64,000 bases of DNA, from NCBI GenBank assembly GCA_045632185.1, contig JAZQWF010000056.1:28168-92167 (forward strand), in the 5' to 3' direction. Made by a program: the position numbers and the translations under genes. Of the stretch, positions 1,317 through 30,277 are shown piece by piece. This DNA comes from Eubacteriales bacterium (GTDB lineage: Bacteria; Bacillota; Clostridia; Oscillospirales; CAG-272). The notes under the pieces were generated by a model. The model ran no database searches, was not told the DNA's origin, and saw nothing but the letters and a program-made list of their open reading frames with translations. Each line of letters begins with the position of its first letter. Positions within the stretch are counted from its first letter, which is position 1.

Positions 1317-3824
1317 ATGAAAAAGATTTTGGCTGTTGACGGCAACAGCATACTCAACCGCGCGTTTTACGGCGTGCGCCCGCTTTCTACCAAGGAGGGG
1401 CTGCCTACCAACGCGCTTTTCGGTATGGTCAATATTTTGGAGCGCAATTTGAATGCGGTAAAGCCGGATTTTTGCGCGATCGCATTCGATTTGAAGCACC
1501 CGACCTTCCGCCACGAAATGTACGATGCCTATAAGGCGGGCAGAAAGCCGATGCCCGAGGAGCTGGCAACCCAGCTGCCCCTTGCCAAGGAAACGGCAAA
1601 GGCGCTTGGATTTACGCCCTTGGAGCTTGCGGGCTACGAGGCGGACGATATTCTCGGTACGCTGGCAAAAATGGCGGAGGACGCGGATTTTGAGGCGTAT
1701 ATCCTGACAGGTGACCGCGACGCCTTGCAGCTGATCTCGGATCGCGTGCATATCCTGCTTGTGACCAATAACGATACCGTTTTGACGGGAAAAGAGCAGT
1801 TCCGCGAGAAATACGGCGTGGAAAGCACGCAATTTGTGGACGTTAAGGCGCTGATGGGAGATAGCTCGGACAACATTCCCGGCGTTCCCGGTATCGGCGA
1901 AAAGACCGCGCTGAAATTGATCGCCGAGCATGGCTCACTGGAAGGTGTTTACAACGATCTGCCCACGGCGCAGCTCACGCCCTCTGTGCGTCGCAAGCTG
2001 GAAGAGGGCAAGGACAGCGCATTTTTGTCGCAAAAGCTGGCTACTATCTACCGCGAGGTGCCGCTTTCGGGGGATCTGAGCGCTTATGCCTATGAGGGAG
2101 TGAACAAGCCGGATGCACTTGCGCTGTTTACGCGTTTTGAATTCCATAGCTTTATCAAGCGTATGGGGCTTGACGAGATCACGCCCGCCGCAAGCGCCGA
2201 GCAAGCACCGCTGCCCGAGGTTGTCGCGTGTGAAAATATCGCAGATCTGCCCGAGATCGTAGCGCTTGGCGTGTACGAGAGCGGAAATTTCTGCTCGGAC
2301 GGTGAAAGTATCCGTGAAATTACCGATGAAAGCTTAAAATGCTTGCTTGCAAGCAACAAAAAGATCGTTTGCCACGATGCCAAAAGCTTGTATAAGACGC
2401 TTGCAGCGAAGGGGATCAACTATCGCGGCGCGTATTTTGATACGATGCTGGCGTGCTACGTGTTGAACGCAGGCGAGGGTGCATTTGACCTTTCGCGCCT
2501 TTCTTTGCAGTATCTTGGCAGAACGCCTGCCGAGCCGCCGCACGATCTGCTCTCGGTGATGGCGCTTTACCGCGAGACAAGCGAGCGTATCACGCGCGAG
2601 GGTGCAGAGAAGCTGCTTTTTGACATTGAAATGCCGCTTTGCGCGGTGCTTGCCGATATGGAGCTTGTCGGCTTCAAGCTTAACCGCGAGGGGCTCGTGT
2701 CCTACGGCGAGCAGCTGACCACCGTTGCCGCTGAGCTTGCCGAGCGCATCTATTACCACGCGGGCGGGGAATTCAACATTCAATCTCCCAAGCAGCTGGG
2801 CGAGGTGCTTTTTGAGCGCCTTGGTCTGCCGCACGGCAAAAAGACAAAGACCGGCTATTCCACCAATGCAGAGGTGTTGGAGAAGCTTCGCCCCTATCAC
2901 GAGATCATTGAGGATATTTTGGATTACCGCCAGGTGACAAAGCTTAATAGCACCTACGCAGAGGGCTTGCTCAAACAGATCGAGGCAGATGGACGTATCC
3001 GCACCGTCTTCAAGCAGACGGGAACCGCTACGGGCCGCCTTTCCTCGGCAGAACCGAACCTGCAAAACATTCCGATCCGTACCGAGCTCGGCAAAGAGCT
3101 ACGGCGCTATTTTATTCCCGAAAAGAACGATTATTTATTGATTGACGCGGACTACTCGCAAATCGAGCTTCGTTTGCTGGCTGCACTCTCCGGTGACGAG
3201 CAAATGATCGGCGCGTTTGCAAGCGGCGAGGATATCCATACCGCCACCGCTTCTACCGTGTTCGGCGTACCGCGTGAGGCGGTCACCGCGGACCTCCGCA
3301 AGCGTGCAAAGGCGGTCAATTTCGGTATTCTGTACGGCATGGGCGCGTTCAGTCTTTCCGAGGATCTGCACATTCCCGTGGCGCGTGCCAAGGAGTATAT
3401 CGCCAGCTATTTCGCCGCCTATCCGAGCATTGACGCCTATCTCAAAGGCGTGATCGAGCAGGCGTACCGCGATGGCTTTGTGACCACGCTGTTCGGGCGC
3501 AGACGCTATATTCCCGAGCTGAAAATGCAGAACAAGAACATGCAGCACTTCGGTGAGCGCGTGGCGGTGAACAGCCCCATTCAGGGTACCGCCGCCGATA
3601 TCATCAAGATCGCAATGATCCGCGTGAGTGAAAAGCTGAAAGAAAGCGGGCTTGATGCACGCCTTGTGCTGCAAGTGCACGACGAGCTGATCGTGGAGTG
3701 CCACAAGGACGCGGCCGAGCAGGCCAAGGCCATTCTTGTTGCCGAAATGGAAAACGCCGTTTCGCTTGCCGTCAGGCTCAAAGTAGAAGCCGCCGTTGGC
3801 GAGAACTGGTATGATACGCATTAA
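1317..3824 (+). CDS. polA: DNA polymerase I
   Basis: 835 aa. It has an N-terminal 5'-3' exonuclease region (ILAVDGNSILNRAFYG) and Pol A family motifs (DYSQIELRLLA, RRxAKAVNFGILYGM, QVHDELIVE). An AGGAGGG ribosome-binding site precedes the ATG. Confidence 0.97.
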   Translation: MKKILAVDGNSILNRAFYGVRPLSTKEGLPTNALFGMVNILERNLNAVKPDFCAIAFDLKHPTFRHEMYDAYKAGRKPMPEELATQLPLAKETAKALGFTPLELAGYEADDILGTLAKMAEDADFEAYILTGDRDALQLISDRVHILLVTNNDTVLTGKEQFREKYGVESTQFVDVKALMGDSSDNIPGVPGIGEKTALKLIAEHGSLEGVYNDLPTAQLTPSVRRKLEEGKDSAFLSQKLATIYREVPLSGDLSAYAYEGVNKPDALALFTRFEFHSFIKRMGLDEITPAASAEQAPLPEVVACENIADLPEIVALGVYESGNFCSDGESIREITDESLKCLLASNKKIVCHDAKSLYKTLAAKGINYRGAYFDTMLACYVLNAGEGAFDLSRLSLQYLGRTPAEPPHDLLSVMALYRETSERITREGAEKLLFDIEMPLCAVLADMELVGFKLNREGLVSYGEQLTTVAAELAERIYYHAGGEFNIQSPKQLGEVLFERLGLPHGKKTKTGYSTNAEVLEKLRPYHEIIEDILDYRQVTKLNSTYAEGLLKQIEADGRIRTVFKQTGTATGRLSSAEPNLQNIPIRTELGKELRRYFIPEKNDYLLIDADYSQIELRLLAALSGDEQMIGAFASGEDIHTATASTVFGVPREAVTADLRKRAKAVNFGILYGMGAFSLSEDLHIPVARAKEYIASYFAAYPSIDAYLKGVIEQAYRDGFVTTLFGRRRYIPELKMQNKNMQHFGERVAVNSPIQGTAADIIKIAMIRVSEKLKESGLDARLVLQVHDELIVECHKDAAEQAKAILVAEMENAVSLAVRLKVEAAVGENWYDTH

Positions 3825-3861
3825 AAAATGCGGGCAGAATTCAATTCTGCCCGCATTTTTT
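3823..3861. terminator. bidirectional rho-independent terminator between polA and the NERD gene
   Basis: An 11-bp stem (GCGGGCAGAAT / ATTCTGCCCGC, 3830-3854) with a 3-nt loop is flanked by an A-run on one side and a T-run on the other. Confidence 0.85.
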
Positions 3862-4688
3862 CAATGTGTGGGGAAATTATAATTATTGTTAGGGGATATG
3901 GGGCGAGGAGAGTGTTTGAATTTGCATTTGGGATAGTTAGAACACCCATAAAACATTCCGTTGCTTCCGTTTCGCATCACTAATACGCCACCGCAGCGAG
4001 GACAAATACCGTTGGAAAGCTGGGCGGCTTTTTCTTTTATGTGCGCAACATGCTCCTCGTTAGTTGCAAAGGATTGATTTTGAAGTAACGTCGTATAAAC
4101 TTGATACATTTTATTGTTATCAAGCACAGGCGTTCCATAGCTGATATACCATTTCAATTTGCTTACAGGAATGGTATAAATGGAGGATATGTTTTGCGTG
4201 TTATTCTGAACAAAAACCACAAGCGAAAATACGGGTACATCGGGAATAAGCTTTTGAATTTGTTTCACATGTACTGCGTTTTGTTGAACAGGGCTGTAAA
4301 AGCTGTTTTTTACTTTTCCATAGTTTAATACCTGCGTCCATTCTTTTCGCGTATCATCACCGTAAACTTGTCCGCTATAATTTTTTGTTTCAATTACAAA
4401 AACACCGATCGAGTTGATAAGGATATGGTCTATCTGGGTGCTGAAACCGTTACCTTGAATGAGATAGTTGTTTAATACATATTGTGCGTTCGGGATCGTT
4501 TGGCCAATGATATTGGAAACAAGCATTTCTCCTGCTTCTCCTCTTAGAGCGCTGCTTCTTTCACGGGAAATATTGTTAGCTTTCTTGCCGGAAACATTGC
4601 TTTCCTTGTAAAGAATATAGATTATTGCCGTAAGCGCAGCAATTGCAATCAGGATGATCAGCGCCAATGCAAAGACGATAAAATCCAT
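3861..4688 (-). CDS. membrane-anchored NERD (nuclease-related) domain protein with a C-terminal C4 zinc ribbon
   Basis: 275 aa. There is an N-terminal TM helix (FALALIILIAIAALTAIIYILY). The central region resembles a NERD domain (GEMLVSNII...QIDHILINSIGVFVIETKNYSG). The C-terminus is a topoisomerase-type zinc ribbon (CPRCGGVLV...YGCSNYPKCKF). A TAGGAGA ribosome-binding site is present. The gene is visibly more AT-rich than its neighbours. Confidence 0.8.
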   Translation of the reverse strand: MDFIVFALALIILIAIAALTAIIYILYKESNVSGKKANNISRERSSALRGEAGEMLVSNIIGQTIPNAQYVLNNYLIQGNGFSTQIDHILINSIGVFVIETKNYSGQVYGDDTRKEWTQVLNYGKVKNSFYSPVQQNAVHVKQIQKLIPDVPVFSLVVFVQNNTQNISSIYTIPVSKLKWYISYGTPVLDNNKMYQVYTTLLQNQSFATNEEHVAHIKEKAAQLSNGICPRCGGVLVMRNGSNGMFYGCSNYPKCKFKHSPRPISPNNNYNFPTH

Positions 4689-4739
4689 TTATTTTGTCTC
4701 CTATATCGGTATAGATATTTAAAAATAGAGCAGATTGGA

Positions 4740-5963
4740 TCAATTTTTCGCATTGCGAATACACAAATTCAATACCAGTGCCACAACCGTAAGGGCAAGC
4801 AGCATGATGAAGGTCACCGTATAGCCGCCGCTGAGCTCAAGCACCTTGTTGGATGCGGTAGCAACAAACGAGCCGATCATAACCGTGAAGGTCATCAGCG
4901 CCATATTGTTCGAAAAATGCTTCATACCGAAGCGCGAGGAGGTAAATGCCGCGGTAATGGTGGGGCACGCGCCATAGGACATGCCCGTCAGGCACGCGCC
5001 GATGATGCAAAGCGGGAGAGAGGTTGCCCAAACCGCGCTCAGCGTTACCAGTGCAGCCCCGATGGTCAACAGATTGGCGCAGATCATCGTTTTGCGGCAG
5101 CCAATCACGTCAAATACCGCGCCCGTAAGGATACGCCCAAGACCGTTGCACACAGAAAGGATGCCGACAAGGGAAACGGCAAGTGCCTCGGGTGCGTTTA
5201 CCGACAGGGCAAGATTTTTGGCAAAGCTGATTACCGAGCTTCCCACGGCAGCAAGGAAGGAAATACAAAGAAAAGCCAGCCAGAACGCGGGGGTGCAAAG
5301 CATCTGCTTTGCCGTAAGATCCTGCGTTTTTTCCGTAGTTGCGGCTTTTTTGGCGGTTGCTTGGGGGAAAACAACGTCAGCACCGGGTTTTTTCAGCACG
5401 ATGCCCGCCGCAACAAGCACCACAAGGAGAGAGGCACCAAGCAGAATGTAGGTCACGCGCCAGCCAAGCGTGCTTTTGAACATCGCATCGGCAAGATTGC
5501 CAAGCACCAAGGCGGATGCGCCAAAGCCCATCATAAGGCACCCAGAGCAAAGTCCTTTTTTATCGGGGAACCAGGCGTTTACGGTGGCGATCACCACATT
5601 ATAGGCGATGCCGATACCAAGACCTGCAAGAACACCGTAGGTGAGGTACAAAAGCAGGACGGAGGCGTCCTTCAAGGCGGCTGTCAGCATAAAACCCGCT
5701 GCCGCAAAAACGCCTGCGGCAATCAGAGCCACGCGGTGTCCAAGGCGCTTTGAGATCTGTGCGCCCAAAAGTCCGCCGATGCAGAAAAACGTCATGGCAA
5801 GCGTGAAATTAAGCGCAAGATCGGATACACCCCAGCCAAATTCGGCGGATAAGGGGGAGTTCAATATGGACCAGGCGTAAAGCACACCGGCAAAAAGCAT
5901 AGCGACAACACCGATGACCATATACACCCATCTGATGGATAATTTTTGTTTGACTTCGTTCAC
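4740..5963 (-). CDS. MFS transporter, oxalate/formate antiporter (OFA)-like family
   Basis: About 12 TM helices. The N-terminal signature RWVYMVIGVVAMLFAGVLYAWSILNSPLSAEFGW is typical of OFA-family MFS proteins. I placed the start at the second GTG (5963), 8 nt after an AGGAG. The track ORF starts at 5972. Confidence 0.85.
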   Translation of the reverse strand: MNEVKQKLSIRWVYMVIGVVAMLFAGVLYAWSILNSPLSAEFGWGVSDLALNFTLAMTFFCIGGLLGAQISKRLGHRVALIAAGVFAAAGFMLTAALKDASVLLLYLTYGVLAGLGIGIAYNVVIATVNAWFPDKKGLCSGCLMMGFGASALVLGNLADAMFKSTLGWRVTYILLGASLLVVLVAAGIVLKKPGADVVFPQATAKKAATTEKTQDLTAKQMLCTPAFWLAFLCISFLAAVGSSVISFAKNLALSVNAPEALAVSLVGILSVCNGLGRILTGAVFDVIGCRKTMICANLLTIGAALVTLSAVWATSLPLCIIGACLTGMSYGACPTITAAFTSSRFGMKHFSNNMALMTFTVMIGSFVATASNKVLELSGGYTVTFIMLLALTVVALVLNLCIRNAKN

Positions 5964-9562: not shown

Positions 9563-11964
9563 ATAATTTTAAGTCTTTTTTGAATGAAAATATCGTCCTT
9601 TTGGACGGTGGTATGGGAACTCTGTTGCAGGCGCGCGGCCTTGCTGCGGGCGAGCTTCCCGAGCGCTGGAACATCTCGCACCCCGAGGTGATTGTGGATA
9701 TCCAGACGCAATATTTCAATGCGGGCAGCAACGTGGTCTGTACCAACACCTTCGGTGCCAATGCACTCAAATTTGCGGACGAGGAGCTGGAAGCGATCAT
9801 TGCCGCCGCGATCCAAAACGCGAAAGCGGCAAGAGAAAAAAGCACCGCACCGCAGCAAAAATTCGTGGCGCTGGATATTGGCCCTTCGGGCAAGCTGTTG
9901 AAGCCGCTTGGAGATCTGGATTTTGAGGCCGCAGTAGAGATCTTTGCCAAGACCGTACGCCTTGGCGTGAAGCACGGCGCAGAGCTTGTTGTGATCGAAA
10001 CGATGAACGACAGCTATGAAACAAAGGCGGCGCTGCTGGCAGCCAAGGAAAGCTGCGATCTGCCCGTGATCGTGACCAACGCCTATGGCGAGGACGGCAA
10101 GCTGATGACGGGGGCTTCTCCCGAAGCGATGGTTGCCTTGCTGGAAGGCATGGGAGCGGACGCCATCGGCGCGAATTGCTCGCTGGGCCCTGCGCAGCTT
10201 GTTGGCGTGGCCGAGGCACTGCTGCGTGCGGCAAGCGTACCCGTAGTCTTAAAGCCCAATGCGGGACTTCCCGTGCTGCGCGATGGGAAAACCGAGTTTG
10301 ACGTTACGCCGTCGCAGTTTGCCGAGATCCTTGCTGATCTTGCGTGCAAGGGATTGCGCGTCATGGGTGGGTGCTGCGGTACAACGCCCGCGCATATTAC
10401 CGCTTTGCGCGAAAAAACGGCAGGACTTGCGCCCGTGCCGCTTACGAAAAAGAACAAAACCGTCATTTCCTCCTATACCCACGTCGTGGACTTTGCCAAC
10501 GAGCCGATCCTGATCGGCGAGCGCATCAATCCCACGGGCAAAAAGCGCTTTAAGCAGGCGCTTATGGAAAAGGATATGGATTATATCCTGAACGAGGGCG
10601 TGAAGCAGGAGGAAAAGGGTGTTCACGTACTGGACGTGAACGTGGGCTTGCCCGATATTGACGAGGTAGAGATGCTGAAAAGCGCCGTTTGCGAGCTGCA
10701 AGCGGTCACGAACCTGCCGCTCCAAATCGACACCGCCGATCCTGCCGCCATGGAGGCCGCACTGCGCCGCTACAACGGCAAGGCGATGGTCAATTCCGTG
10801 AACGGAAAAGAGGAGAGCATGCGCGCGGTATTTCCGCTTGTCAAAAAATACGGCGGTGTTGTGGTGGCGCTGACCTTGGACGAGGGCGGTATTCCCGCAG
10901 ATGCCAAGGGACGCATCGCCATTGCCGAAAGGATCCTTGCCACCGCTGCAGAATACGGCATTGAAGGGAAGGATATCGTATTTGATACGCTGGCTATGAC
11001 TGTCAGCGCGGACAATCAGGCGGCAAAGGCCACGCTCGGCGCGCTTTCTCATATCAAAAAAGTGTTGAGATGCCACACCTCGCTTGGTGTATCCAACGTT
11101 TCCTTCGGTCTGCCGCACCGCGATGCGGTGAACGCGACCTTCTTTGCAATGGCACTGACAAGCGGGCTTTCCGCCGCCATTATGAACCCGTATTCCGCGG
11201 ATATGATGAAGACCTATTTTGCGTACCGTGCGCTGAACGGTCAGGACGAAAACTGCGCGGATTATGTTGCCGCAGCAGCCGAATTTGCCGTGCAAGCGCC
11301 CGTGTTGACGAGCGATGCACCGCAAAAAAGTGCCGAGGAATATGCCTCTGAGCTGCAAAAAGCCGTGATCAAGGGATTTAAGGAGCGTGCGGGGGAATTG
11401 ACCAAGGAATTGCTGAAAACCGCCTTGCCGCTTGATATTGTGAACGGCGAGATCATTCCCGCACTCAATGCGGTGGGGGACGGTTTTGAGAAAAAGACCG
11501 TTTATCTGCCCCAGCTGCTGATTGCCGCCGAGGCCGCCAAGCACGCCTGTGAGCAGATCAAATCCTGCCTGTGCGCCGCAGATGCGCCTGCGGAGAAGAA
11601 AGCCCCCTTCGTGATCGCCACCGTGCATGGTGATATTCACGATATCGGCAAAAATATCGTGAAGCTTTTGCTGGAAAATTACGGCTTTGCCGTGATCGAT
11701 CTGGGAAAGGACGTGCCGCCTGAGGCGGTCGTTGAGGCCGTGATCGCGCATCACGCGCCGATGGTGGGACTTTCCGCGCTGATGACCACGACCGTACCCG
11801 CAATGGAAGAAACGATCAAGCGGCTGCGCGAAAAAGCGCCGTGGTGCCGTATCGTTGTGGGCGGTGCCGTGCTGACAGCAGAGTACGCCGATAAGATCGG
11901 TGCAGATGCCTACGCCAAGGACGCGATGGAAACCGTGCGCTTTGCGCAGAGCATTGCAGAATAA
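9559..11964 (+). CDS. metH: methionine synthase (homocysteine S-methyltransferase + pterin-binding + B12-binding domains; no fused activation domain)
   Basis: 801 aa. It has the Hcy-binding region (LLDGGMGT...GGCCGTTP), a pterin-binding region, and the cobalamin-binding motif with the His ligand (ATVHGDIHDIGKNIV). Confidence 0.93.
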   Translation: MNNFKSFLNENIVLLDGGMGTLLQARGLAAGELPERWNISHPEVIVDIQTQYFNAGSNVVCTNTFGANALKFADEELEAIIAAAIQNAKAAREKSTAPQQKFVALDIGPSGKLLKPLGDLDFEAAVEIFAKTVRLGVKHGAELVVIETMNDSYETKAALLAAKESCDLPVIVTNAYGEDGKLMTGASPEAMVALLEGMGADAIGANCSLGPAQLVGVAEALLRAASVPVVLKPNAGLPVLRDGKTEFDVTPSQFAEILADLACKGLRVMGGCCGTTPAHITALREKTAGLAPVPLTKKNKTVISSYTHVVDFANEPILIGERINPTGKKRFKQALMEKDMDYILNEGVKQEEKGVHVLDVNVGLPDIDEVEMLKSAVCELQAVTNLPLQIDTADPAAMEAALRRYNGKAMVNSVNGKEESMRAVFPLVKKYGGVVVALTLDEGGIPADAKGRIAIAERILATAAEYGIEGKDIVFDTLAMTVSADNQAAKATLGALSHIKKVLRCHTSLGVSNVSFGLPHRDAVNATFFAMALTSGLSAAIMNPYSADMMKTYFAYRALNGQDENCADYVAAAAEFAVQAPVLTSDAPQKSAEEYASELQKAVIKGFKERAGELTKELLKTALPLDIVNGEIIPALNAVGDGFEKKTVYLPQLLIAAEAAKHACEQIKSCLCAADAPAEKKAPFVIATVHGDIHDIGKNIVKLLLENYGFAVIDLGKDVPPEAVVEAVIAHHAPMVGLSALMTTTVPAMEETIKRLREKAPWCRIVVGGAVLTAEYADKIGADAYAKDAMETVRFAQSIAE

Positions 11965-23651: not shown

Positions 23652-24308
23652 ATGCTTGATACGGTATTTTTGATCCTGCAATGCGTTGGCGTGTTTTCCT
23701 TTTCCATTACGGGTACGATCATCGCCATGCGCAAGAAAAATGATTTTGTGGGGGCGCTGTTTTTCGCACTTTTGACCTCGTTTGGCGGTGGAATTATCCG
23801 CGACGTGGTAACGGGGAACATTCCGCGCCTTTTCACCCAAAAAGATTATTACATCATGGCGATCGTTTGCATCGCGACCTCGCTTTTGTGCTTCCATCTG
23901 GCATTTATCGAGCCAATCGGTAAATTTATCGGTAAGCACCGACACAACTTCTTTGTGGAGCTGACGGATGCCATCGGTCTTTCCATCTTCTGCGTGCTTG
24001 GCGTAGACGCCACCCGAACAATGCTTGGCGAGGGAACGATACCGCTGATCCTGATCTTCGGCGGCTTTATTACGGGCGTGGGCGGCGGTATGCTGCGCGA
24101 TATCTGCTCGGCACAGATCCCCGCGATCTTCCGCAAGGATATTTATCTGATCCCCGCGGTGCTTGGCTCCACGCTTTACGTTTTTACATACCCCCACTGG
24201 CCGCATCTGTTGGCCGTTGTCGTGGCATCGGCGCTGATCATGACCATTCGTTTGTTGGCGTATTTCTTCAAGTGGAATATGCCGGTACATAAAGAAAAGG
24301 ACGCATAA
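23652..24308 (+). CDS. trimeric intracellular cation channel (TRIC / UPF0126, YadS-YicG) family membrane protein
   Basis: 218 aa with 7 TM helices. The glycine-rich motif is duplicated (FGGGIIRDV and GVGGGMLRDI). Confidence 0.8.
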   Translation: MLDTVFLILQCVGVFSFSITGTIIAMRKKNDFVGALFFALLTSFGGGIIRDVVTGNIPRLFTQKDYYIMAIVCIATSLLCFHLAFIEPIGKFIGKHRHNFFVELTDAIGLSIFCVLGVDATRTMLGEGTIPLILIFGGFITGVGGGMLRDICSAQIPAIFRKDIYLIPAVLGSTLYVFTYPHWPHLLAVVVASALIMTIRLLAYFFKWNMPVHKEKDA

Positions 24309-24321
24309 TGCGTCCTTTTTC

Positions 24322-25092
24322 TTATTTATTCTGATGCAGCACCTCAAAGCCGAGCACGGTGGCAGCAGAGGCAGCGGAAAGGGAACCGCGGAACTCTCTG
24401 CCGTAGTCGATGCGCACAGTCTGGTCGCAAAGTGCCATTACCTCGCGGGAAACGCCGCGTTTTTCGCCGCCAACGACCAATACAAGCGGTTTTTTCAGGT
24501 CTGCCTCGTACATGGAAACCGCGTCGCGGATACCCGCTGTTACGATACGATAGCCCAGCTTTTTCAGCTCGGTCAATGCCGTTAAGGGGTCGCCCGCAAA
24601 GACAGGAAACGCCTCGGAAGCACCCGCAGAGGCGCGTGCTACCACGCCCGCCGCAGAGAGCCAGTTACGCTCGCCGAGCAGAATGGCATCACACCCCGCC
24701 GCGTAAAGCGAGCGCAGAGCATAGCCGAAGTTATAAGGGTCCTCCAACCCTTCCAGATAGCACAAAAAGCCGTTTTTCGGCAGGTTTTGCGCGGTGGGGG
24801 CGGGAAGTGTGCGATCACCGCAAAGGGCGATCACGCCGCCGTGGGTGTTACCGATACAATTTTCCTCGATCGTGGCAGTATCCGTCAGCACAAGGGGAAT
24901 ACCCAGCTCGCGCGTTTTGGCCTGTAAAAAGCCGAATTCGCGCATTTTTTTCTCCTTTTTGGTACGGTCAAACCAGATCTCGTGGATCGGGCGATCATTC
25001 ACGCCCGCCGCCTTGGCTGCAAGCAGCGCGGAGATCGAGGTCATACCTTCCATTATATTAGACGGAACAAATCTTTTTTCTTCTTTGATCAT
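24322..25092 (-). CDS. TrmH/SpoU-family RNA 2'-O-methyltransferase (RlmB-like)
   Basis: 256 aa counted from MIKEEK. It has an N-terminal substrate-binding region and SpoU methylase motifs (LVVGGEKRGVS...IDYGREFRGSLSAASAATV). Confidence 0.85.
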   Translation of the reverse strand: MIKEEKRFVPSNIMEGMTSISALLAAKAAGVNDRPIHEIWFDRTKKEKKMREFGFLQAKTRELGIPLVLTDTATIEENCIGNTHGGVIALCGDRTLPAPTAQNLPKNGFLCYLEGLEDPYNFGYALRSLYAAGCDAILLGERNWLSAAGVVARASAGASEAFPVFAGDPLTALTELKKLGYRIVTAGIRDAVSMYEADLKKPLVLVVGGEKRGVSREVMALCDQTVRIDYGREFRGSLSAASAATVLGFEVLHQNK

Positions 25093-25182
25093 AATTACTT
25101 TCCTTTGTTCTTTTGCGCCGATGCGCCTCATAAGATAAGTATAGCAAATTTTTTGCAATTTTTCAACAGGGGAAAGGGAAAT

Positions 25183-25443
25183 ATGCTACATATTATAGAA
25201 GAAAATCGCTGCGAGGCGTTGGGGCGATATATTGTAAGCTATCAGGCGACCGTGCGTGACACCGCCGCAAAATTTCAGATCAGCAAAAGCACCGTACACA
25301 AGGATGTGACCGCCGTGCTGAAAAATATCAATCGCGGGCTTTATGAGGAGGTCAGTGCCATTTTGCAGAAAAACAAATCAGAGCGCCACCTGCGCGGCGG
25401 CGAGGCCACGCGAAAAAAATACGAGCGAAGCGGCAAAAAATAA
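25183..25443 (+). CDS. spoIIID: stage III sporulation protein D (mother-cell transcription regulator)
   Basis: 86 aa. The sequence MLHIIEENRCEALGRYIVSYQATVRDTAAKFQISKSTVHKDV...SERHLRGGEATRKKY matches the SpoIIID HTH family. A GGGGAAAGGGA ribosome-binding site is present. Confidence 0.9.
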   Translation: MLHIIEENRCEALGRYIVSYQATVRDTAAKFQISKSTVHKDVTAVLKNINRGLYEEVSAILQKNKSERHLRGGEATRKKYERSGKK

Positions 25444-25494
25444 ACGGGGAGGCGAAGAACCCGCCTTATTTGCTTTTTGGCTCATTTATAGATA

Positions 25495-25510
25495 CAATTA
25501 TACAAAATAC
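25495..25510. repeat. left direct repeat (attL core)
   Basis: CAATTATACAAAATAC, identical to 27803-27818. Confidence 0.95.
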
Positions 25511-25638
25511 GGTTTTTGTTTGACTTGAAAGTGGCGGGGGCGCCATTTCCTATCGCGCATTGCGCGGGCGCCTTTCCTTTCCGCCGCTGGGCGCGGGGCT
25601 TGCAACGAGCCAAACCATACAAAAACCCGTATTTTGTA
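25501..25638. repeat. imperfect inverted repeat: left att core paired with an inverted internal copy, enclosing an 83-nt loop
   Basis: Pairing was checked by hand. 25501-25512 pairs with 25627-25638 (12 bp), C25626 is unpaired, 25513-25519 pairs with 25619-25625 (7 bp), and 5 further pairs extend out to 25527/25611. Confidence 0.85.
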
Positions 25639-25771
25639 AGCACATCCGCGCTTCGGCGCGGGTGCGGTTAATTGCCGCGATTTCCGCCACTTGCCGCCGT
25701 CTGCGCGCGCGCGCCCCTCCTTCCCACTCTCCCGCCCGCTGGACAAATATTGCGATTGTGAAAAATCCCGC

Positions 25772-25800
25772 TTGACATTCCACACCAAGCGTGATATAAT
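25772..25800 (+). promoter_or_regulatory. near-consensus sigmaA promoter inside the element, facing rep
   Basis: TTGACA (25772-25777), a 17-nt spacer, then an extended -10 TGaTATAAT (25792-25800). Confidence 0.75.
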
Positions 25801-26138
25801 AAGTGTGCAGATATACCGCATGGTATAAACGCACGCCAAAGTCCACGATCGCGCGCAGGGCTGGGCGCTGTGATCGCGTGCGTAAGCCAAAGGGAGTTCC
25901 CGCAAGGGGGCTCCCTTTTCGCGTCCCCGCGTATGCGGGTATCTGCGCTCCCCCAGCGGGGGACGGGAGGGGGAGAAAACCCGCCCGCGGCGAAACGGGG
26001 TGCAGGGGTACCCCCTGCACGCAAGCCCCCTCGGGGGCACAGCGGAACGGGGGGGGAGGGCGCTCCGTTGCGCCCGTAACTCTCAATGGAGGATTGCAAA
26101 TCCATTACTTGATATATAGGACAGTATGTCATCAAATC
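25801..26138 (+). other. hairpin-dense GC-rich leader (candidate structured RNA or single-strand origin)
   Basis: There are successive stem-loops: GGGAG..CCC-GCAA-GGG..CTCCC (25893-25916), CCCGC-GTAT-GCGGG, CCCCC-AGC-GGGGG, GTGCAGGGG-TAC-CCCCTGCAC (a 9-bp stem) and GCCCC-CTCG-GGGGC. Translations in all frames are low-complexity G/R/P. Confidence 0.45.
26107..26115 (+). other. candidate rolling-circle nick site (phiX174-ori-like ACTTGATAT)
   Basis: There is a 9-nt identity to my recollection of the phiX174 origin core CAACTTG/ATATTAATAAC. The motif lies immediately 3' of a GGATT-GCA-AATCC hairpin and 24 nt upstream of the rep ATG. Confidence 0.3.
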
Positions 26139-26972
26139 ATGCAATTCCAGTCCAGCCAAAAACTAAATTCTTTTTCCGCCCCAGCGGAAAAATTCCACGC
26201 CCGCGCAAAGTACATTCCCGACGGAAACGGCGGCTTAAAACTCGCTATGGTTCAGGGCTTTACATTCCCGATGTTCAATCCCGACGCCGACGCCTCCGCC
26301 GTCAAAAAAAGCGGCGTTGCCGAGGATCCCGCCCCGCGCGATCCTACGGCTTCGCCCGCGCTTGCCGATGTTGAGCGCGCTTCCCGCCGCGCGAAAATTT
26401 CCGCTTTCGATAAAATCCTCTGCAATCCCGACCTTGACACCTTCGCCACATTCACCTATGCTCCCGATTTTGTGACCGATAAAGCCGATTGGGACGCGTG
26501 CTACCGCTATTTGAAAAATTGGCTTTCCAACCGCGTCCAGCGCGATGGCTTAAAATATGTGATTGTTCCCGAGCGTCACAAATCGGGGGATATTCATTTC
26601 CACGGGATTTTGAACAGCAGCGCGCTTGACCTTTCGCGCGCGGTGTCACCGAAAAGCGGCCGCCCGCTTTCCCACAAGGGCAACCCGCTTTTCAACATAC
26701 CCGATTGGCGCGGCGGCTTCACTTCTGCCGAGATTATTCAAGGCGGCGCGCAAGACCGCGAAAAAGTGGCAAAATATATTTTCAAGTACATGGGCAAGCA
26801 AGCGGGCGCGAAAGTCGGCGGGCGGTATATGCTTTCCGGCGGTGATCTTGTTTTGCCGACTTATGTTTACGAGCAGAGTATTGACGCGCTGCTTGACGGC
26901 ACCACGCCCGTTTATGATCGCGCCGTCGATCTTGGGGAGCGGGGTAAATATTTTGAGTACAGTTTTATTTGA
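26139..26972 (+). CDS. rolling-circle replication initiator, HUH superfamily I (two-tyrosine, Microviridae gpA/VP4-like)
   Basis: 277 aa counted from the first ATG after the structured region. Motif I is FATFTY, motif II is GDIHFHGIL (HUH), and motif III is KYIFKYMGK (Y-x-x-x-Y). The start codon is uncertain because no clear ribosome-binding site is present and the ORF stays open upstream to 25803. Confidence 0.75.
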   Translation: MQFQSSQKLNSFSAPAEKFHARAKYIPDGNGGLKLAMVQGFTFPMFNPDADASAVKKSGVAEDPAPRDPTASPALADVERASRRAKISAFDKILCNPDLDTFATFTYAPDFVTDKADWDACYRYLKNWLSNRVQRDGLKYVIVPERHKSGDIHFHGILNSSALDLSRAVSPKSGRPLSHKGNPLFNIPDWRGGFTSAEIIQGGAQDREKVAKYIFKYMGKQAGAKVGGRYMLSGGDLVLPTYVYEQSIDALLDGTTPVYDRAVDLGERGKYFEYSFI

Positions 26973-27109
26973 CAATGTGTCCCAAAAACGGGACGCAAAA
27001 TGCAGCCGCCCGCCGACGGCCGCCGCCCCCGGTGGTTGGCGGTGGGTGGAAGCCGCGCCCGCGCGGCAAAAACCCAGCCAAAAACAATTTAACAGTTTAG
27101 GAGTGTAAA

Positions 27110-27676
27110 ATGCAGAGCAAATACCTTGAAGCCCGCGAAATCTCCGCTTTGCGGCGTGAAGCGGGCGTAGAGTGGTTGCCGCTGGAAGTGGCATTTTTGA
27201 CGGGGCTGCGGATTGGTGATGTGCTGAAAATCCGCCCGTGTGATCTCACGCCGCAGGGCGTAGTTTACACGGCGGAAAAAACGGGCAAGCGTGGATTTGC
27301 GCCCCTGCCGCCAACGGTCTTGGCGGCGTTGCATAAAAATGCGCGGGGAGAATGGTGCTTTCCCTCGCCAAAGGCGAAAGGGAAGCACCTCACGCGCCAA
27401 GCCGCATGGCAACGCATAAAGAGAGCCGCCAAGCGCGCAGGGGTGGAGCCGCGCGGGGTGAGCCCGCACGCCCTGCGCAAAAGTTTTGCAGTGGAGCGCA
27501 TGCACACGGGGGGCTTGCAAGCGGTGCAGGCGGCGTTACAGCATGACAGCGCGGGTGTAACCGAGATTTACGCGCTTTCCGACTGGCTGACGGGGGAAAA
27601 CGCAAACAAGCCGCTTTTGCGCCGCGACCTGCAAGCCATTGCGACAAAAATTGCCGAGTTGCTTCGGGGGGGTTGA
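27110..27676 (+). CDS. tyrosine recombinase/integrase, catalytic domain only (188 aa)
   Basis: An AGGAG ribosome-binding site is present, and an in-frame TAG 12 nt upstream prevents any N-terminal extension. The catalytic signature is complete: Arg (LTGLRIGDV), Lys (EKTGKR), HxxR (SPHALRKSF), His (LQHDS) and the Tyr nucleophile (VTEIY). Confidence 0.85.
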   Translation: MQSKYLEAREISALRREAGVEWLPLEVAFLTGLRIGDVLKIRPCDLTPQGVVYTAEKTGKRGFAPLPPTVLAALHKNARGEWCFPSPKAKGKHLTRQAAWQRIKRAAKRAGVEPRGVSPHALRKSFAVERMHTGGLQAVQAALQHDSAGVTEIYALSDWLTGENANKPLLRRDLQAIATKIAELLRGG

Positions 27677-27802
27677 TTTTTGCGGGTTTCCGTGGTAACA
27701 TAGTGGGGAAAGGAGGTTGTCCTATAAAACAGCCATCTTCCTTTGGAGTTACCGCAAACAGGGGCGCTGTGCGCGCAGGTGGCGGCTTTTAATATGGCGG
27801 GG

Positions 27803-27818
27803 CAATTATACAAAATAC
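27803..27818. repeat. right direct repeat (attR core)
   Basis: CAATTATACAAAATAC. It is embedded in the perfect palindrome TATACAAAA-TACAAG-TTTTGTATA (27807-27830). Confidence 0.95.
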
Positions 27819-27966
27819 AAGTTTTGTATAAAAGAGGGGATCTAAAAAGGGCCTGAATACGGGGGTTTGGTGCGTCTGCGGCCTGATTTATGCTTGGGCG
27901 TGATATTCGGCCTGGATTTTTGATGGTTTTGCCTTCCTACGCAATTTTGATGTTTTTTGATCTGCT

Positions 27967-28108
27967 GCGTTAAAAATTTTTTCTTCAAACGATCAACACC
28001 CCGTACCGCACAATTATTTTTAACGTGCCTTTTTTCTTTGGAGCGCACTTACGGCATAAATTTTTCTTAAAAGCTTATTTTCAAAAAATGAGCGTTAAAA
28101 ATTTTTTC
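27967..28108. repeat. 17-bp perfect direct repeat pair GCGTTAAAAATTTTTTC (27967-27983 and 28092-28108) with inverted partial copies
   Basis: The two copies are exact and 125 bp apart. Partial inverted copies lie at 28016-28025 (ACGTTAAAAA on the minus strand) and 28144-28154 (GCTGCGTTAAA on the minus strand). Confidence 0.8.
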
Positions 28109-28443
28109 CTGTAACGGACTGTGCATCGTTTTTCATCATTTCATTTAACGCAGCAAAACGCCGCCGAGGCACCATCATATAAAATCCGAAAGCAATACAA
28201 ACATCACTTTGTAAAAAAATCCTTTTTCTTCTTTTTGTTAATGTTTTAACAATCAAAAGAAAAGCTTTGAGATTTTTATACAAAACAAAATCTTATAAAT
28301 TGTAAATAGTACCGATTTTTTCGTGTTTGTTCAAAAAAAGATTGCCCTTATTTTAGTTTTATGTTATAATATCTGCGTATGGTTGAAAGTATGCTTTACG
28401 GCAAGCTTTCCTATCAAAAAATTCATCGGAGGTTTACCGAATT

Positions 28444-28869
28444 ATGGCAATCAAAATGCGCGTACTTTACACCCCCACCAAGAAAAAACTGGCTGACATG
28501 GCCAATATCATCAAGGCAGAATACGCCCTGGACGTCAACGCTGTTGACAAGATCCTTCCCGCTTATTCCTGCAATAACGAGCGTATCGTGATCCTGATGC
28601 TCTCCCTCAAAGGCGAGCCCGACGATCAGCTCCGTCGTTTCTGCGGCGAGATGACCAAGGCACGTGCCAACAACACTGCCCTGATCATCAACGGTCCCGA
28701 GGCCGCTGCAAACCGCATGAAGGAGATCCTGGTGGCTGCCGGCACCAAGGTTGTTGACGAGGTATTCTACGTCAAGACCGCATTCCTTTCCTTCCTTGAC
28801 AAGATCACGGATGAGGAAAAGGCAGATCTGCTTGCTTGGACGCACCGCGTTGTTGACGGCTTGCAGTAA
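28444..28869 (+). CDS. hypothetical protein (alpha/beta, flavodoxin-like impression only)
   Basis: 141 aa. A GGAGG lies upstream, and a TTGCCC-17-TATAAT promoter sits at about 28343-28371. A strong terminator follows. I recognised no diagnostic motif. Confidence 0.55.
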   Translation: MAIKMRVLYTPTKKKLADMANIIKAEYALDVNAVDKILPAYSCNNERIVILMLSLKGEPDDQLRRFCGEMTKARANNTALIINGPEAAANRMKEILVAAGTKVVDEVFYVKTAFLSFLDKITDEEKADLLAWTHRVVDGLQ

Positions 28870-28888
28870 TCCGTTTGACACAAAAAAA

Positions 28889-28919
28889 GCCCTTGCCGAC
28901 GATGCGGCAAGGGCTTTTT
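28889..28919 (+). terminator. rho-independent terminator
   Basis: Hairpin GCCCTTGCCG-ACGATG-CGGCAAGGGC followed by TTTTT. Confidence 0.85.
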
Positions 28920-29065
28920 GCTATTTCAAAAAGTAAACATTTTGCAAAATTTCCCCTTCCCGCTTGCTCTTTTTTGCTTATTATGTTATACTATATGGGA
29001 TTATATTTCTAATCGCGAGCGATATGTACGCGCGCGATAAGTTTAAGCAAAGCGAGGTCTTACTT

Positions 29066-30277
29066 ATGAAGTATTTGGTTCTGATCCCCGACGGCATGGC
29101 TGACGAGCAGATCGAGGCACTTGGCGGCCTTTCCCCCATGCAAAAGGCACACAAGCCCGTGATGGACGAGCTGGCAAAAAGCGCGCTTGTTGGCACGGTT
29201 TCCAACGTTCCCGAGGGCATGGTTCCCGAGAGTGATACGGCAAATCTTGCCATTCTTTCCTACGATCCCAAGGAGTTTTCCAAGGGTCGTTCCCCGCTGG
29301 AAGCCGTCAGCATCGGCATCGAGATGCAGCCCGACGAGGTTGCCTACCGTTGCAACGTGGTAACGCTTTCCGATAACGGCGAGGATTACGACGATAAGAT
29401 CATTCTTGACCACAGCGCTGACGAGATCACCACCGCCGAGGCAGACGAGCTGATCAAGGCGTTGGAGGCCGAAATGGGCGACGAGATCAAGAAATTCTAT
29501 ACCGGTATCAGCTACCGTCATTGCCTGATCTGGAAGAACGGTAACGACAAGTACAATTTCAACCGTCCCCACGATATTCTCGGCCGCCGCATCGGCGAGT
29601 ACCTGCCCGATCAGGAAAACGGCAAGGAATTCTACGATCTGATGCGCAAAAGCTTTGATATTCTCAACCATCACCCCGTCAACGAGGCACGCCGTGCGCG
29701 CGGCTTGAAGCCCGCAAACTCCGCTTGGCTTTGGAGCCCCGGCAAGAAGCCGCAGCTTCCCTCCTTTGAGGAAAAATGGGGCTTAAAGGGTGCTGTGATC
29801 TCTGCCGTTGACCTGATCAAGGGCATCGGTCTTTGCGCCAAGATGCGCTCCATTGACGTAGAGGGTGCAACCGGTAACGTACACACCAACTACAAGGGTA
29901 AGGCAGACGCCGCCATCGAGGCATTCCGTGACGGTGCCGAGCTTGTTTACGTACACGTGGAAGGTCCGGACGAGTGCGGCCATCGCGCTGAGCTGGAAAA
30001 TAAGGTCACCTGCATCGAGCGTATTGACGCAGAGATCCTTGCGCCCGTGCTTGCTTACCTGCGCGAGTGTGGCGAGGACTTCAAGATCATGATCCTACCT
30101 GACCACCCCACGCCCATTCGTATTCGTACGCACACCATTCTCCCCGTTCCCTTCATGATCTACTCCTCTACCGAGAGCAAAAACGGTGTCGAGCAGTTCA
30201 GCGAGCAGAGCGCCGAGGCACAGAATTATTATGTGGAGAACGGCTATACTTTGATGGGGCTGCTGACGCAGAAATGA
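29066..30277 (+). CDS. cofactor-independent phosphoglycerate mutase family protein (ApgM-type; some homologues act as alternative homoserine kinases)
   Basis: 403 aa counted from MKYLVLIPDGMADE. It has metalloenzyme-superfamily blocks (HVEGPDECGHRAE, LPDHPTP). Confidence 0.8.
   Translation: MKYLVLIPDGMADEQIEALGGLSPMQKAHKPVMDELAKSALVGTVSNVPEGMVPESDTANLAILSYDPKEFSKGRSPLEAVSIGIEMQPDEVAYRCNVVTLSDNGEDYDDKIILDHSADEITTAEADELIKALEAEMGDEIKKFYTGISYRHCLIWKNGNDKYNFNRPHDILGRRIGEYLPDQENGKEFYDLMRKSFDILNHHPVNEARRARGLKPANSAWLWSPGKKPQLPSFEEKWGLKGAVISAVDLIKGIGLCAKMRSIDVEGATGNVHTNYKGKADAAIEAFRDGAELVYVHVEGPDECGHRAELENKVTCIERIDAEILAPVLAYLRECGEDFKIMILPDHPTPIRIRTHTILPVPFMIYSSTESKNGVEQFSEQSAEAQNYYVENGYTLMGLLTQK

Follow-up and report, generated by a model that had tools for sequence, protein, structure and literature searches.

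The window analysed here, a stretch of 64,000 nt from an Eubacteriales bacterium, contains an integrated element of 2.3 kb that lies downstream of a host spoIIID-like gene and is bordered by a 16-bp direct repeat (Table 1). The element carries a gene for a rolling-circle Rep and a gene for a small tyrosine recombinase, and it has no virion genes. The Rep matches the Pfam model REP_ORF2-G2P with 51.8 bits (cut-off 27.8) and has both the HUH and the tyrosine motifs. When the element was compared by BLAST with phage and plasmid collections, no match was obtained. A scan of IMG/VR with the Rep profile gave no confirmed relatives, and a search of positions 24000–30000 against Rfam gave chance matches below threshold only.

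Table 1. Positions of the host and element features around the insertion, numbered from the first letter of the window
Feature	Position	Strand	Remarks
Host spoIIID-like gene	25183–25443	+	From ORF translation; context
Terminator-like hairpin of spoIIID-like gene	25449–25467		Upstream of the insertion site
16-bp direct repeat CAATTATACAAAATAC, left copy	25495–25510	.	Host left dif arm (putative) and 3 spacer nt
attL hybrid (site 1), TATACAAAA-TACGGT-TTTTGTTTG	25499–25522	+	Left arm from the host, then the common TAC; the spacer half GGT and the degenerate right arm TTTTGTTTG come from the element
Integrated element, 2,308 bp	25511–27818	+	Boundary set after the shared TAC; free circles with the same gene content exist
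G+C-rich distal domain of predicted attP fold	25523–25616	+	Between site 1 and site 2; compensatory pairs in helices 4–5
Site 2, ATACAAAA-ACCCGTA-TTTTGTAA	25617–25639	+	Inverted partner of site 1
Small hairpin within the "bottom strand" of the folded left arm	25641–25667	+	Helix 6; compensatory changes in 4/5 pairs
TAATTGCC	25669–25676	+	Complement of the element outer left arm GGCAATTA (27801–27808); helix 1
Promoter-like consensus site TTGACA-17-TATAAT with upstream TG	25772–25800	+	12/12 matches; 340 nt 5' of rep
HUH rolling-circle Rep, 277 aa	26139–26972	+	HFHGIL and YIFKYMGK motifs; Pfam PF23343 REP_ORF2-G2P, E 1.1e-13; PHROG rolling-circle initiator
Tyrosine recombinase, 188 aa, Xer-like	27110–27676	+	Catalytic domain only; PF00589
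Element's own left arm and TAC (GGGCAATTATACAAAATAC)	27800–27818	+	Left half of the palindrome that integration would regenerate
attR, intact palindrome TATACAAAA-TACAAG-TTTTGTATA	27807–27830	.	Putative host dif regenerated by integration

The anatomy of the two junctions can be read directly from the window. The right copy of the direct repeat lies at 27803–27818, and the two matches of CAATTATACAAAATAC compare with 0.02 expected, a number that was reached in none of 100 shuffles; within this 16-bp identity the crossover cannot be placed more finely from sequence alone. The initial annotation had described the junction sites as collinear and as differing only in the 3' half of the spacer. The collinearity, the common left arm with TAC and the difference of GGT versus AAG were confirmed, but the right arms differ as well, in their outer 3 nt (TTG versus ATA). 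The right junction is, as had been stated, a perfect palindrome of 9+6+9 nt. The pattern ACAAAA-N6-7-TTTTGT occurs three times in the window against 0.02 expected, and its third copy, which had been missed, lies at 25619–25637 within the element.

Relatives of the element are also found in a free form. The Rep has 473 homologues, the majority of them on contigs of 2.2–2.9 kb, and the contigs of six relatives that were fetched have identical ends of 26, 30 or 141 nt and are therefore closed circles of 2.26–2.61 kb with the same genes. The circles come from the metagenomes ERZ27297462 and SRR29277964. A Rep above the gathering score, its motifs and a free circular form with terminal overlaps are the features of an HUH rolling-circle replicon. 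The circle junction runs from the element right end CAATTATACAAAA through the spacer and TTTTG to the element left end (L001 reads GGCGGGGCAATTATACAAAATGCCCGTTTTGTTTGACTTGAAAGG). When compared with one another, the circles show little or no variation in the left arm; the spacer begins with TGC or TCA and is variable thereafter, and the right arm is degenerate past TTTTG. The attP that had been reconstructed from the two junctions has the form seen in closed circles whose Reps are 97–98% identical to that of the window, which read GGCGGGGCAATTATACAAAATGCCCGTTTTGTTTGAC (L001) and ...CAATTATACAAAATGCCGCGTTTTGTG (L002); this confirmation comes from relatives, and the spacer allele of the window (TAC followed by GGT) was not among the circles recovered. 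L003 and the Rep relatives that have full-length integrases (L006–L011, L017) occupy other insertion sites.

Independent insertions were collected with the Rep profile from one genome per species, which gave 24 loci, nearly all in Clostridia MAGs, and five further occupied sites came from a metagenome scan. Ten insertions had both ends, and the shared spacer nucleotides were counted from ACAAAA inward. The left arm and exactly 3 spacer nt were identical in 7 of these ten, with triplets that vary between insertions: TAC in the window, GGA in L012, GAT in L013, TGC in L024, L025 and L026, and TAA in L051. One insertion each shared 2 nt only (L050), 5 nt (L021) and the whole spacer (L004); full spacer identity, as a further exception to the 3-nt rule, was also seen in L005. 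At spacer positions 4–6 only about 3 of 21 comparisons matched, attL and attR being read by eye. In all ten insertions attR is a perfect palindrome and attL is a hybrid, and several attP spacers are 7–8 nt long, compared with 6 nt in attB. The element left arm of L026 follows the host-specific variant CAACTATAC. An asymmetry of the GGT/AAG type, noticed at first in one copy, is therefore constant in most independent insertions while the triplets differ. Identity of attP and attB over the whole overlap, a feature of canonical integrases, was not found in the window (GGT versus AAG) and is recurrently absent in relatives; the homology to the host site is confined to the spacer bases beside one arm.

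An empty and an occupied allele of the same species (L073 and L051, flanks 98.5% identical) show this directly. The uninterrupted site of L073 is AAATTATACAAAA-TAAATG-TTTTGTATAATTT. In L051, an insert of 2,855 bp is accompanied by a duplication of 15 bp (AATTATACAAAATAA); the spacer reads TAA followed by CCAG in attL and TAAATG in attR. The empty allele thus carries the attR-type spacer and not that of attP, which agrees with the earlier assignment of the perfect palindrome to attB, and the homology in this pair is again limited to the bases beside one arm. About 110 further unoccupied perfect palindromes were found on metagenome contigs. An exact look-up of the host SpoIIID protein for empty alleles gave none on record, and the contigs returned by a look-up of the downstream 141-aa protein all end about 190 bp short of the site, so that neither look-up yielded this host's own empty allele (spacer TACAAG). 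The inserts of L090 and L147 have the opposite orientation to L051 relative to the conserved host flanks, as judged from short flank matches to L086 and L097. Since both orientations occur at a palindromic site, the few bases (3 nt) beside one arm would set the direction of insertion.

The host palindrome has the form (CAAT)TATACAAAA-N6-TTTTGTATA(ATTG), and it appears to be the chromosome dimer-resolution (dif) site of the host. When the window was divided into 1-kb bins without the element, the mean GC skew was +0.041 on the left of the site and -0.043 on the right (p = 9e-7), and this plus-to-minus polarity is, as far as skew can tell, that of a replication terminus. The best change point of the skew lies about 4.5 kb to the right of the site. 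A scan of metagenome contigs for TTATACAAAA-N6-TTTTGTATAA gave at least 120 loci. Among the 120 loci listed, the flanking genes are unrelated, the spacer is usually T-N4-A/G and the inner arms are AAAA/TTTT. Long contigs (up to 1.5 Mb) have a single match each on the stored stretches, among the matches listed. In at least 55 of the 120 loci listed, a gene of the Xer family (about 335 aa) starts 50–450 bp from the palindrome and is transcribed away from it; in L073 it lies at 3369–4376. Its product has scores under the equivalog cut-offs with the XerC, XerA, XerD and XerS models, and among structures it matches those of XerD and XerH; NCBI calls it XerC in MAGs of Oscillospiraceae and Ruminococcaceae. 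In at least one species, a XerD-like gene is also near the site. For the skew analysis, the loci were oriented first by the perfect palindrome with short flanks, then by a GGGRA motif and finally by the xer gene. With the last, the left skew exceeded the right skew in 16 of 16 species-level groups (Wilcoxon p = 3e-5), the left skew being positive in all 16 and the right skew negative in 14.

The skew switch, the Xer linkage and the conservation of the site amid varied flanks are all consistent with integration at the host dif, and the insertions would mark a candidate dif/Xer module for Oscillospiraceae-type genomes. Of the features of a single-recombinase Xer/dif module, the adjacency of xer and the terminus position were seen; the copy number was taken from contigs, and the window and several MAG loci have the palindrome with no adjoining xer gene. 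Neither a canonical Firmicutes dif nor, by tblastn, another tyrosine recombinase or Xer gene was found in the 64-kb window. The palindrome is also occupied in L022, by an inovirus-like prophage of 4.9 kb with a Rep, a Zot-type ATPase, an HTH repressor and no recombinase. This prophage shows whole-spacer identity and has no inverted partner site.

A second ACAAAA-N-TTTTG site was present in 20 of 21 elements at 30–160 nt from site 1, and the spacers of the two sites are related as reverse complements. In the window, the reverse complement of the site 2 spacer is TACGGGT, which matches TACGGT of site 1. The use of site 2 as a direct repeat for a second crossover was considered and dropped, because the spacers are reverse complements and the stems outside the arms covary. 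When the circle junction of the window was folded with DNA parameters, the plus strand gave a minimum free energy (MFE) of -52.2 kcal/mol (z = -6.4) with site 1 paired to site 2, and the minus strand gave -46.0 kcal/mol; the fold is specific to the plus strand because of G-T pairs. The pairing of site 1 with site 2 was found in the MFE structure of every circle.

Covariation was counted in an alignment of seven elements with Rep identities of 71–98%. Their consensus structure has 53 pairs with 93.5% of the cells paired, and 21 pairs show compensatory changes, compared with 9.3 ± 1.9 in shuffles (0 of 500 reached 21) and 0–9 in slid controls; prediction of the structures and counting of the pairs used the same seven sequences. 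In the stem, the inner left arm and positions 2–3 of the spacer are paired, with compensatory changes among G-C, A-T and C-G. The remaining spacer is mostly a bubble, and compensatory changes are seen once more in the paired segment of TTTTG and the extension of the right arm. Just past the inserted hairpin, the distal TAATTGCC pairs with the outer left arm GGCAATTA, so that the whole left arm is rebuilt as a duplex. Of 20 elements, 15 have an exact complement of their own outer arm downstream of site 2, against a chance of about 0.017 for each, and five versions of arm and complement covary (GCAATTA/TAATTGC, GAAATTA/TAATTTC, TCTATTA/TAATAGA, CCAATTA/TAATTGG and GCTATTA/TAATAGC). Integration puts 2.3 kb between the two halves of the left-arm helix, and the fold would therefore form only in the circular single strand, the product of an HUH Rep. 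The computed folds, the covariation and the outer-arm complement agree in giving an attP made by intrastrand pairing of two inverted dif-like sites in plus-strand ssDNA, and the covariation strongly supports a predicted attP fold that resembles attP(+) of CTXphi. A structure of this kind could also serve another purpose, for example as a single-strand origin.

The 188-aa protein aligns to residues 136–278 of XerD and has no core-binding domain; the layout of core-binding and catalytic domains of a canonical integrase is therefore absent. The protein matches NCBIfam Xer models, and its AF2 model (pLDDT 92) is closest to the folds of XerH, IntI4, XerA and lambda Int, the match (TMt about 0.4) being confined to their catalytic halves; against isolated catalytic domains, TMt is about 0.7. 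R34, K57/K60, H120-x-x-R123, H145 and Y154 are invariant in 35 sequences with identities down to 51%, and the C-terminal motif D158-W159...G162...P168..R171.D173 is invariant in the same sequences. Its 484 homologues are 138–227 aa long, nearly all of them 185–227 aa, and nearly all are encoded on contigs of 2–3 kb. The recombinase is thus conserved in the whole element family, with purifying selection on the catalytic residues in hundreds of elements. Matches to integron-integrase models are partial and far below the cut-offs, the features of integron IntI and attC were not found, and the site architecture of the element is dif-like.

Taken together, these results point to a rolling-circle mini-replicon of 2.3 kb whose integration at the host dif is a Xer-type reaction with exchange of only one strand pair, a reading to which we assign a probability of about 0.6. 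The proposal of single-strand exchange in the initial annotation is supported, with a mechanism that we infer from comparative sequence. The attP would consist of a perfect copy of the left arm, the first 3 spacer nt of the host allele (TAC here), an unrelated remainder of the spacer and a degenerate right arm. The HUH Rep would displace a circular plus strand in which attP folds: site 1 would pair with site 2, which is inverted and lies at a distance of about 100 nt, and the distal TAATTGCC would pair with the outer left arm, leaving the full left arm and 3 nt as duplex and the rest of the spacer as a bubble. Recombinase protomers on both left arms, provided by the host Xer, the 188-aa protein or both, would then cleave the top strands at the border of arm and spacer, and the 3 nt would pair with the partner before the strands are ligated. 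The second exchange would be blocked because there is no homology and, in the hairpin, no continuous second strand, and replication would convert the junction into the prophage. The expected products are a hybrid attL at 25499–25522 and an intact dif as attR at 27807–27830, so that the host would keep a working dif. That the regenerated dif would take its left arm from the element explains why this arm is a perfect copy. The lack of a Xer gene in the 64 kb of the window, the distance of about 4.5 kb between the skew change point and the site, and the departures of L004, L005 and L050 from the 3-nt rule are points against the main reading.

As for the catalyst, the host Xer may carry out the chemistry, since the integrase-less inovirus-like prophage uses the same site, and a self-sufficient reaction is possible because the element encodes its own recombinase. 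Candidate roles of the 188-aa protein are a catalytic partner or activator of the host Xer, a self-sufficient enzyme, an excision factor and a relaxase like TcpM or MpsA. A more detailed proposal, which we offer tentatively and doubt more than we believe, is that the protein is a Xer paralogue reduced to the catalytic domain, which joins host Xer protomers on the synapse of folded attP and dif and licenses FtsK-independent single-strand exchange (a "plug-in" subunit between XafT and an integrase), and at the same time that the palindrome is a dif not described before, on which the linked "XerC" acts in Oscillospiraceae and their relatives, a large clade of gut Clostridia.

Single-strand exchange at dif could also take place on duplex DNA, with the double-stranded replicative form recombining through site 1 alone before replication, and with the fold acting as a single-strand origin or a regulatory structure. 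Several observations favour this variant. As a duplex, site 1 offers an entire left arm and, in the window, a spacer of 6 nt; L022, the prophage with no integrase, does without an inverted partner site; VGJphi demonstrates that homology on one side suffices on duplex DNA (PMC4246890); and a folded single-strand origin is a requirement of rolling-circle replicons. A duplex core site, however, fits poorly with the many attP spacers of 7–8 nt that face 6 nt in attB, and the fold rebuilds exactly the Xer-binding left arm with a covarying distal complement that a replication origin would not require. Mainly because of this covariation and the long spacers, the fold as substrate (CTX type) is rated above a duplex attP (VGJ type), which we regard as a serious but rather improbable candidate. 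A different possibility concerns the palindrome, which might be a dedicated attachment or operator site upstream of the Xer-like gene and not a dif, with the 188-aa recombinase alone performing integration. The retention of all catalytic residues under purifying selection in hundreds of elements, the overlap of the palindrome with a -10-like TATAAT and the loci without an adjoining xer gene, the window included, would fit this idea. It is made distinctly unlikely by the GC-skew switch, which all 16 groups and the window show, by the conservation of the site whatever the flanking genes, by its use by an integrase-less inovirus and by the missing core-binding domain of the 188-aa protein.

Canonical two-strand exchange would require a crossover inside the 16-bp identity, where its position is open as far as the sequence goes, or tolerance of the spacer heterology, and the whole-spacer identity of L004, L005 and L022 could be cited in its favour. 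The perfect palindrome of attB, however, implies cleavage that is symmetric about the spacer and an overlap that includes the whole spacer, and a 3-nt identity therefore cannot support such an exchange. With no inverted symmetry around any stretch of 6–8 bp of the left arm, and with identity ending at 3 nt in 7 of ten insertions and few matches beyond (about 3/21), we consider two-strand exchange very improbable. The Rep, the only other DNA-cleaving enzyme encoded, might instead nick in the loop after spacer nt 3 of hairpin-forming sites and join the strands of element and host, as in single-strand transposition. Such a reaction would explain the sharp boundary after 3 nt and an ssDNA intermediate, but Reps that are 97–98% identical adjoin different putative nick sequences (TAC^GGT, TGC^CCG and TGC^CGCG), boundaries of 2, 5 and 10 nt are also seen, and the sites have the two-arm layout with a 6-nt spacer of tyrosine recombinases and copy a Xer-linked host site, which leaves this idea with even less plausibility. 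Practically no weight is given to drift after integration as the origin of the GGT/AAG difference. The window provides a single copy only, which would allow it, but the empty allele L073 has the attR spacer, the opposite of what drift predicts, free circles carry spacer halves that differ from attB, and the pattern recurs in 9 of ten insertions; for the relatives, drift is refuted.

To our knowledge, the biology of one-strand integration at dif by IMEXs comes very largely from work on Vibrio and a small number of other Proteobacteria. The present findings point to the same strategy, with a CTXphi-like folded attP, in abundant gut Clostridia, where it would be used by hundreds of mini-replicons of 2.3–3 kb and by at least one inovirus-like prophage. 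In the literature searched, whose coverage was incomplete, no description was found of this dif-like site, of IMEXs in Clostridia or of catalytic-domain-only recombinases on such elements. The association of a conserved recombinase of this kind with dif-targeting elements raises a testable question on Xer activation outside cell division, and the short attP/attB pairs with their natural spacer variants are a ready panel for the 3-nt homology rule. By definition, an IMEX integrates through the host Xer and encodes no recombinase, and the classic IMEXs encode none. Judged by its gene content, the L022 prophage has this defining feature. The element of the window is IMEX-like and would work like an IMEX, but it falls outside the strict definition because it encodes a conserved recombinase of its own, reduced to the catalytic domain.

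The initial annotation compared the element with CTXphi and Xer, and the likeness is closer than was known then: attB behaves as the host dif, and attP is, by computation, a folded two-site structure. The mechanism of one-strand integration is established for CTXphi and VGJphi (PMC4246890; PMC5357621). Like the element, the CTXphi-type IMEXs of Vibrio cholerae (CTXphi and RS1) are rolling-circle replicons of inovirus ancestry that integrate at dif (PMC4246890; PMC5357621). In CTXphi attP(+), two inverted sites about 90 nt apart are paired on the dif-matching side and unpaired on the other (PMC4246890). Shared with this type are an attP of two inverted dif-like sites about 90–120 nt apart that folds in the plus ssDNA, a homology to dif beside one arm only and the regeneration of an intact dif on one side. 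In contrast, the element here lives in a Gram-positive gut Clostridium, and its putative target dif is perfectly palindromic, which points to a single recombinase. The left arm is rebuilt in two pieces across an inserted hairpin, and the element is 2.3 kb long, without virion genes and with its own catalytic-domain-only recombinase. The VGJphi type has a duplex attP with one-sided homology, and the TLCphi type has a degenerate second arm with full spacer homology; L004, L005 and the L022 prophage look like the TLC pattern. In TLCphi, Xer is activated by XafT, a protein factor that the phage itself supplies (PMC6744903; PMC9226527). Unlike XafT, which is no recombinase, the 188-aa protein has an entire recombinase catalytic domain, including the tyrosine nucleophile.

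In the integron reaction of attC with attI, one partner is a folded single strand and the other a duplex; one strand exchange joins them, and the product is resolved by replication. The scheme proposed here is alike in the folded strand and the single exchange, but attC-type extrahelical bases and the IntI-specific insertion are absent and the protein has half the size of IntI. MpsA of SGI1 and TcpM of pCW3 are relaxases with a recombinase fold that act on a G+C-rich inverted-repeat region and are not integrases (PMC6414798). A similar task is an alternative job for the 188-aa protein, which differs from both: its active site is of the canonical XerD-like kind, and its sequence clearly resembles Xer. 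The host site itself resembles those of XerS/difSL, XerH/difH and XerL/dif, which have a near-palindromic site with AAAA/TTTT inner arms, a 6-nt spacer and the recombinase gene alongside at the terminus (PMC5357621; PMC9765430). Unlike these modules, the linked gene here (about 335 aa, "XerC") stays below the equivalog cut-offs, and at least one species has a XerD-like gene nearby. In Legionella, it was likewise a dif-mimicking mobile element that revealed the XerL/dif system (PMC5357621; PMC9765430).

At the empty site L073, the palindrome is followed by the motif TTnAGGGRA and then by a Xer-family gene, and the GC skew switches there. This arrangement of palindrome and Xer-family gene recurs in at least 55 of the 120 palindrome-bearing metagenome loci listed (L030-L149). 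Together, the palindrome and its linked gene are a candidate dif/Xer module for Clostridia of the Oscillospiraceae type; no description of such a module was found in the literature searched. In one species (L043), a XerD-like gene lies 2.5 kb from the site, besides the site-linked gene; its TIGR02225 score was 312 bits, slightly below the cut-off. The site-linked gene is present as two ORFs in the contig examined, a split reflecting either a frameshift or a sequencing error.

Coordinates of features in the window and in the compared loci (L-numbers)
Feature	Location	Remark
Candidate dif palindrome TTATACAAAA-N6-TTTTGTATAA	L073:3285-3312	perfect palindrome
Xer-family gene linked to palindrome, ~335 aa	L073:3369-4376	
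XerD-like gene and site-linked Xer gene, one species	L043:2387-3295 and 4427-5394	
Other perfect palindromes associated with integrase-bearing Rep relatives	L009:28-53 and 2394-2419; L010:925-950	
XseB gene (exonuclease VII small subunit, PF02609)	L002:1401-1586; L150:2283-2450	between rep and recombinase gene
G+C-rich stretch, 240 nt	window 25840-26080	between promoter and rep
Hydrophobic ORF, 27 codons, MLGRDIRPGFLMVLPSYAILMFFDLLR	window 27889-27972	start 60 nt past palindrome
Repeated stretch in L021	L021:4002-4290 vs 10070-10358	
Inovirus-like prophage, 4.9 kb	L022:4637-9550	in same palindrome as above, beside coaX

Where Rep relatives encode full-length integrases, the associated perfect palindromes have other sequences, CAAATCGGCA-GACGTC-TGCCGATTTG and CAAATTCGCA-AGCGCT-TGCGAATTTG (L009, L010), and are possibly further attachment sites. 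The small XseB gene was found in some mini-circles only, and is an odd cargo given the 2.5-kb replicon.

In the window, the very G+C-rich stretch upstream of rep contains several strong hairpins and is possibly a double-strand origin or leader; its Rfam int-alpA match is weak and sub-threshold (22 bits). The hydrophobic ORF sits in an A+T-rich gap of 600 bp, in which there is no further gene.

Copies of the element right end (50-82 bp) were observed directly left of attL, the hybrid left junction, in four occupied insertions (L021, L024, L025 and L050). L021 also holds a further copy of the element, whose attL-type junction, the second in this locus, lies 2.2 kb past attR and beyond coaX. These copies and the second junction may be remnants or tandem arrays of the CTX/RS1 kind, or an assembly artefact.

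The inovirus-like prophage in L022 encodes a Rep of 285 aa, a Zot-type ATPase and an HTH repressor, and has no recombinase gene in its 4.9 kb. Immediately past coaX (L022:3764-3800), two copies of the half-site TTTTGTATAAT stand in tandem 20 nt apart, possibly as scars left by earlier integrations. The identity at the prophage attachment site extends over the whole spacer and the second arm is degenerate, and in both respects its attP resembles the TLC type.
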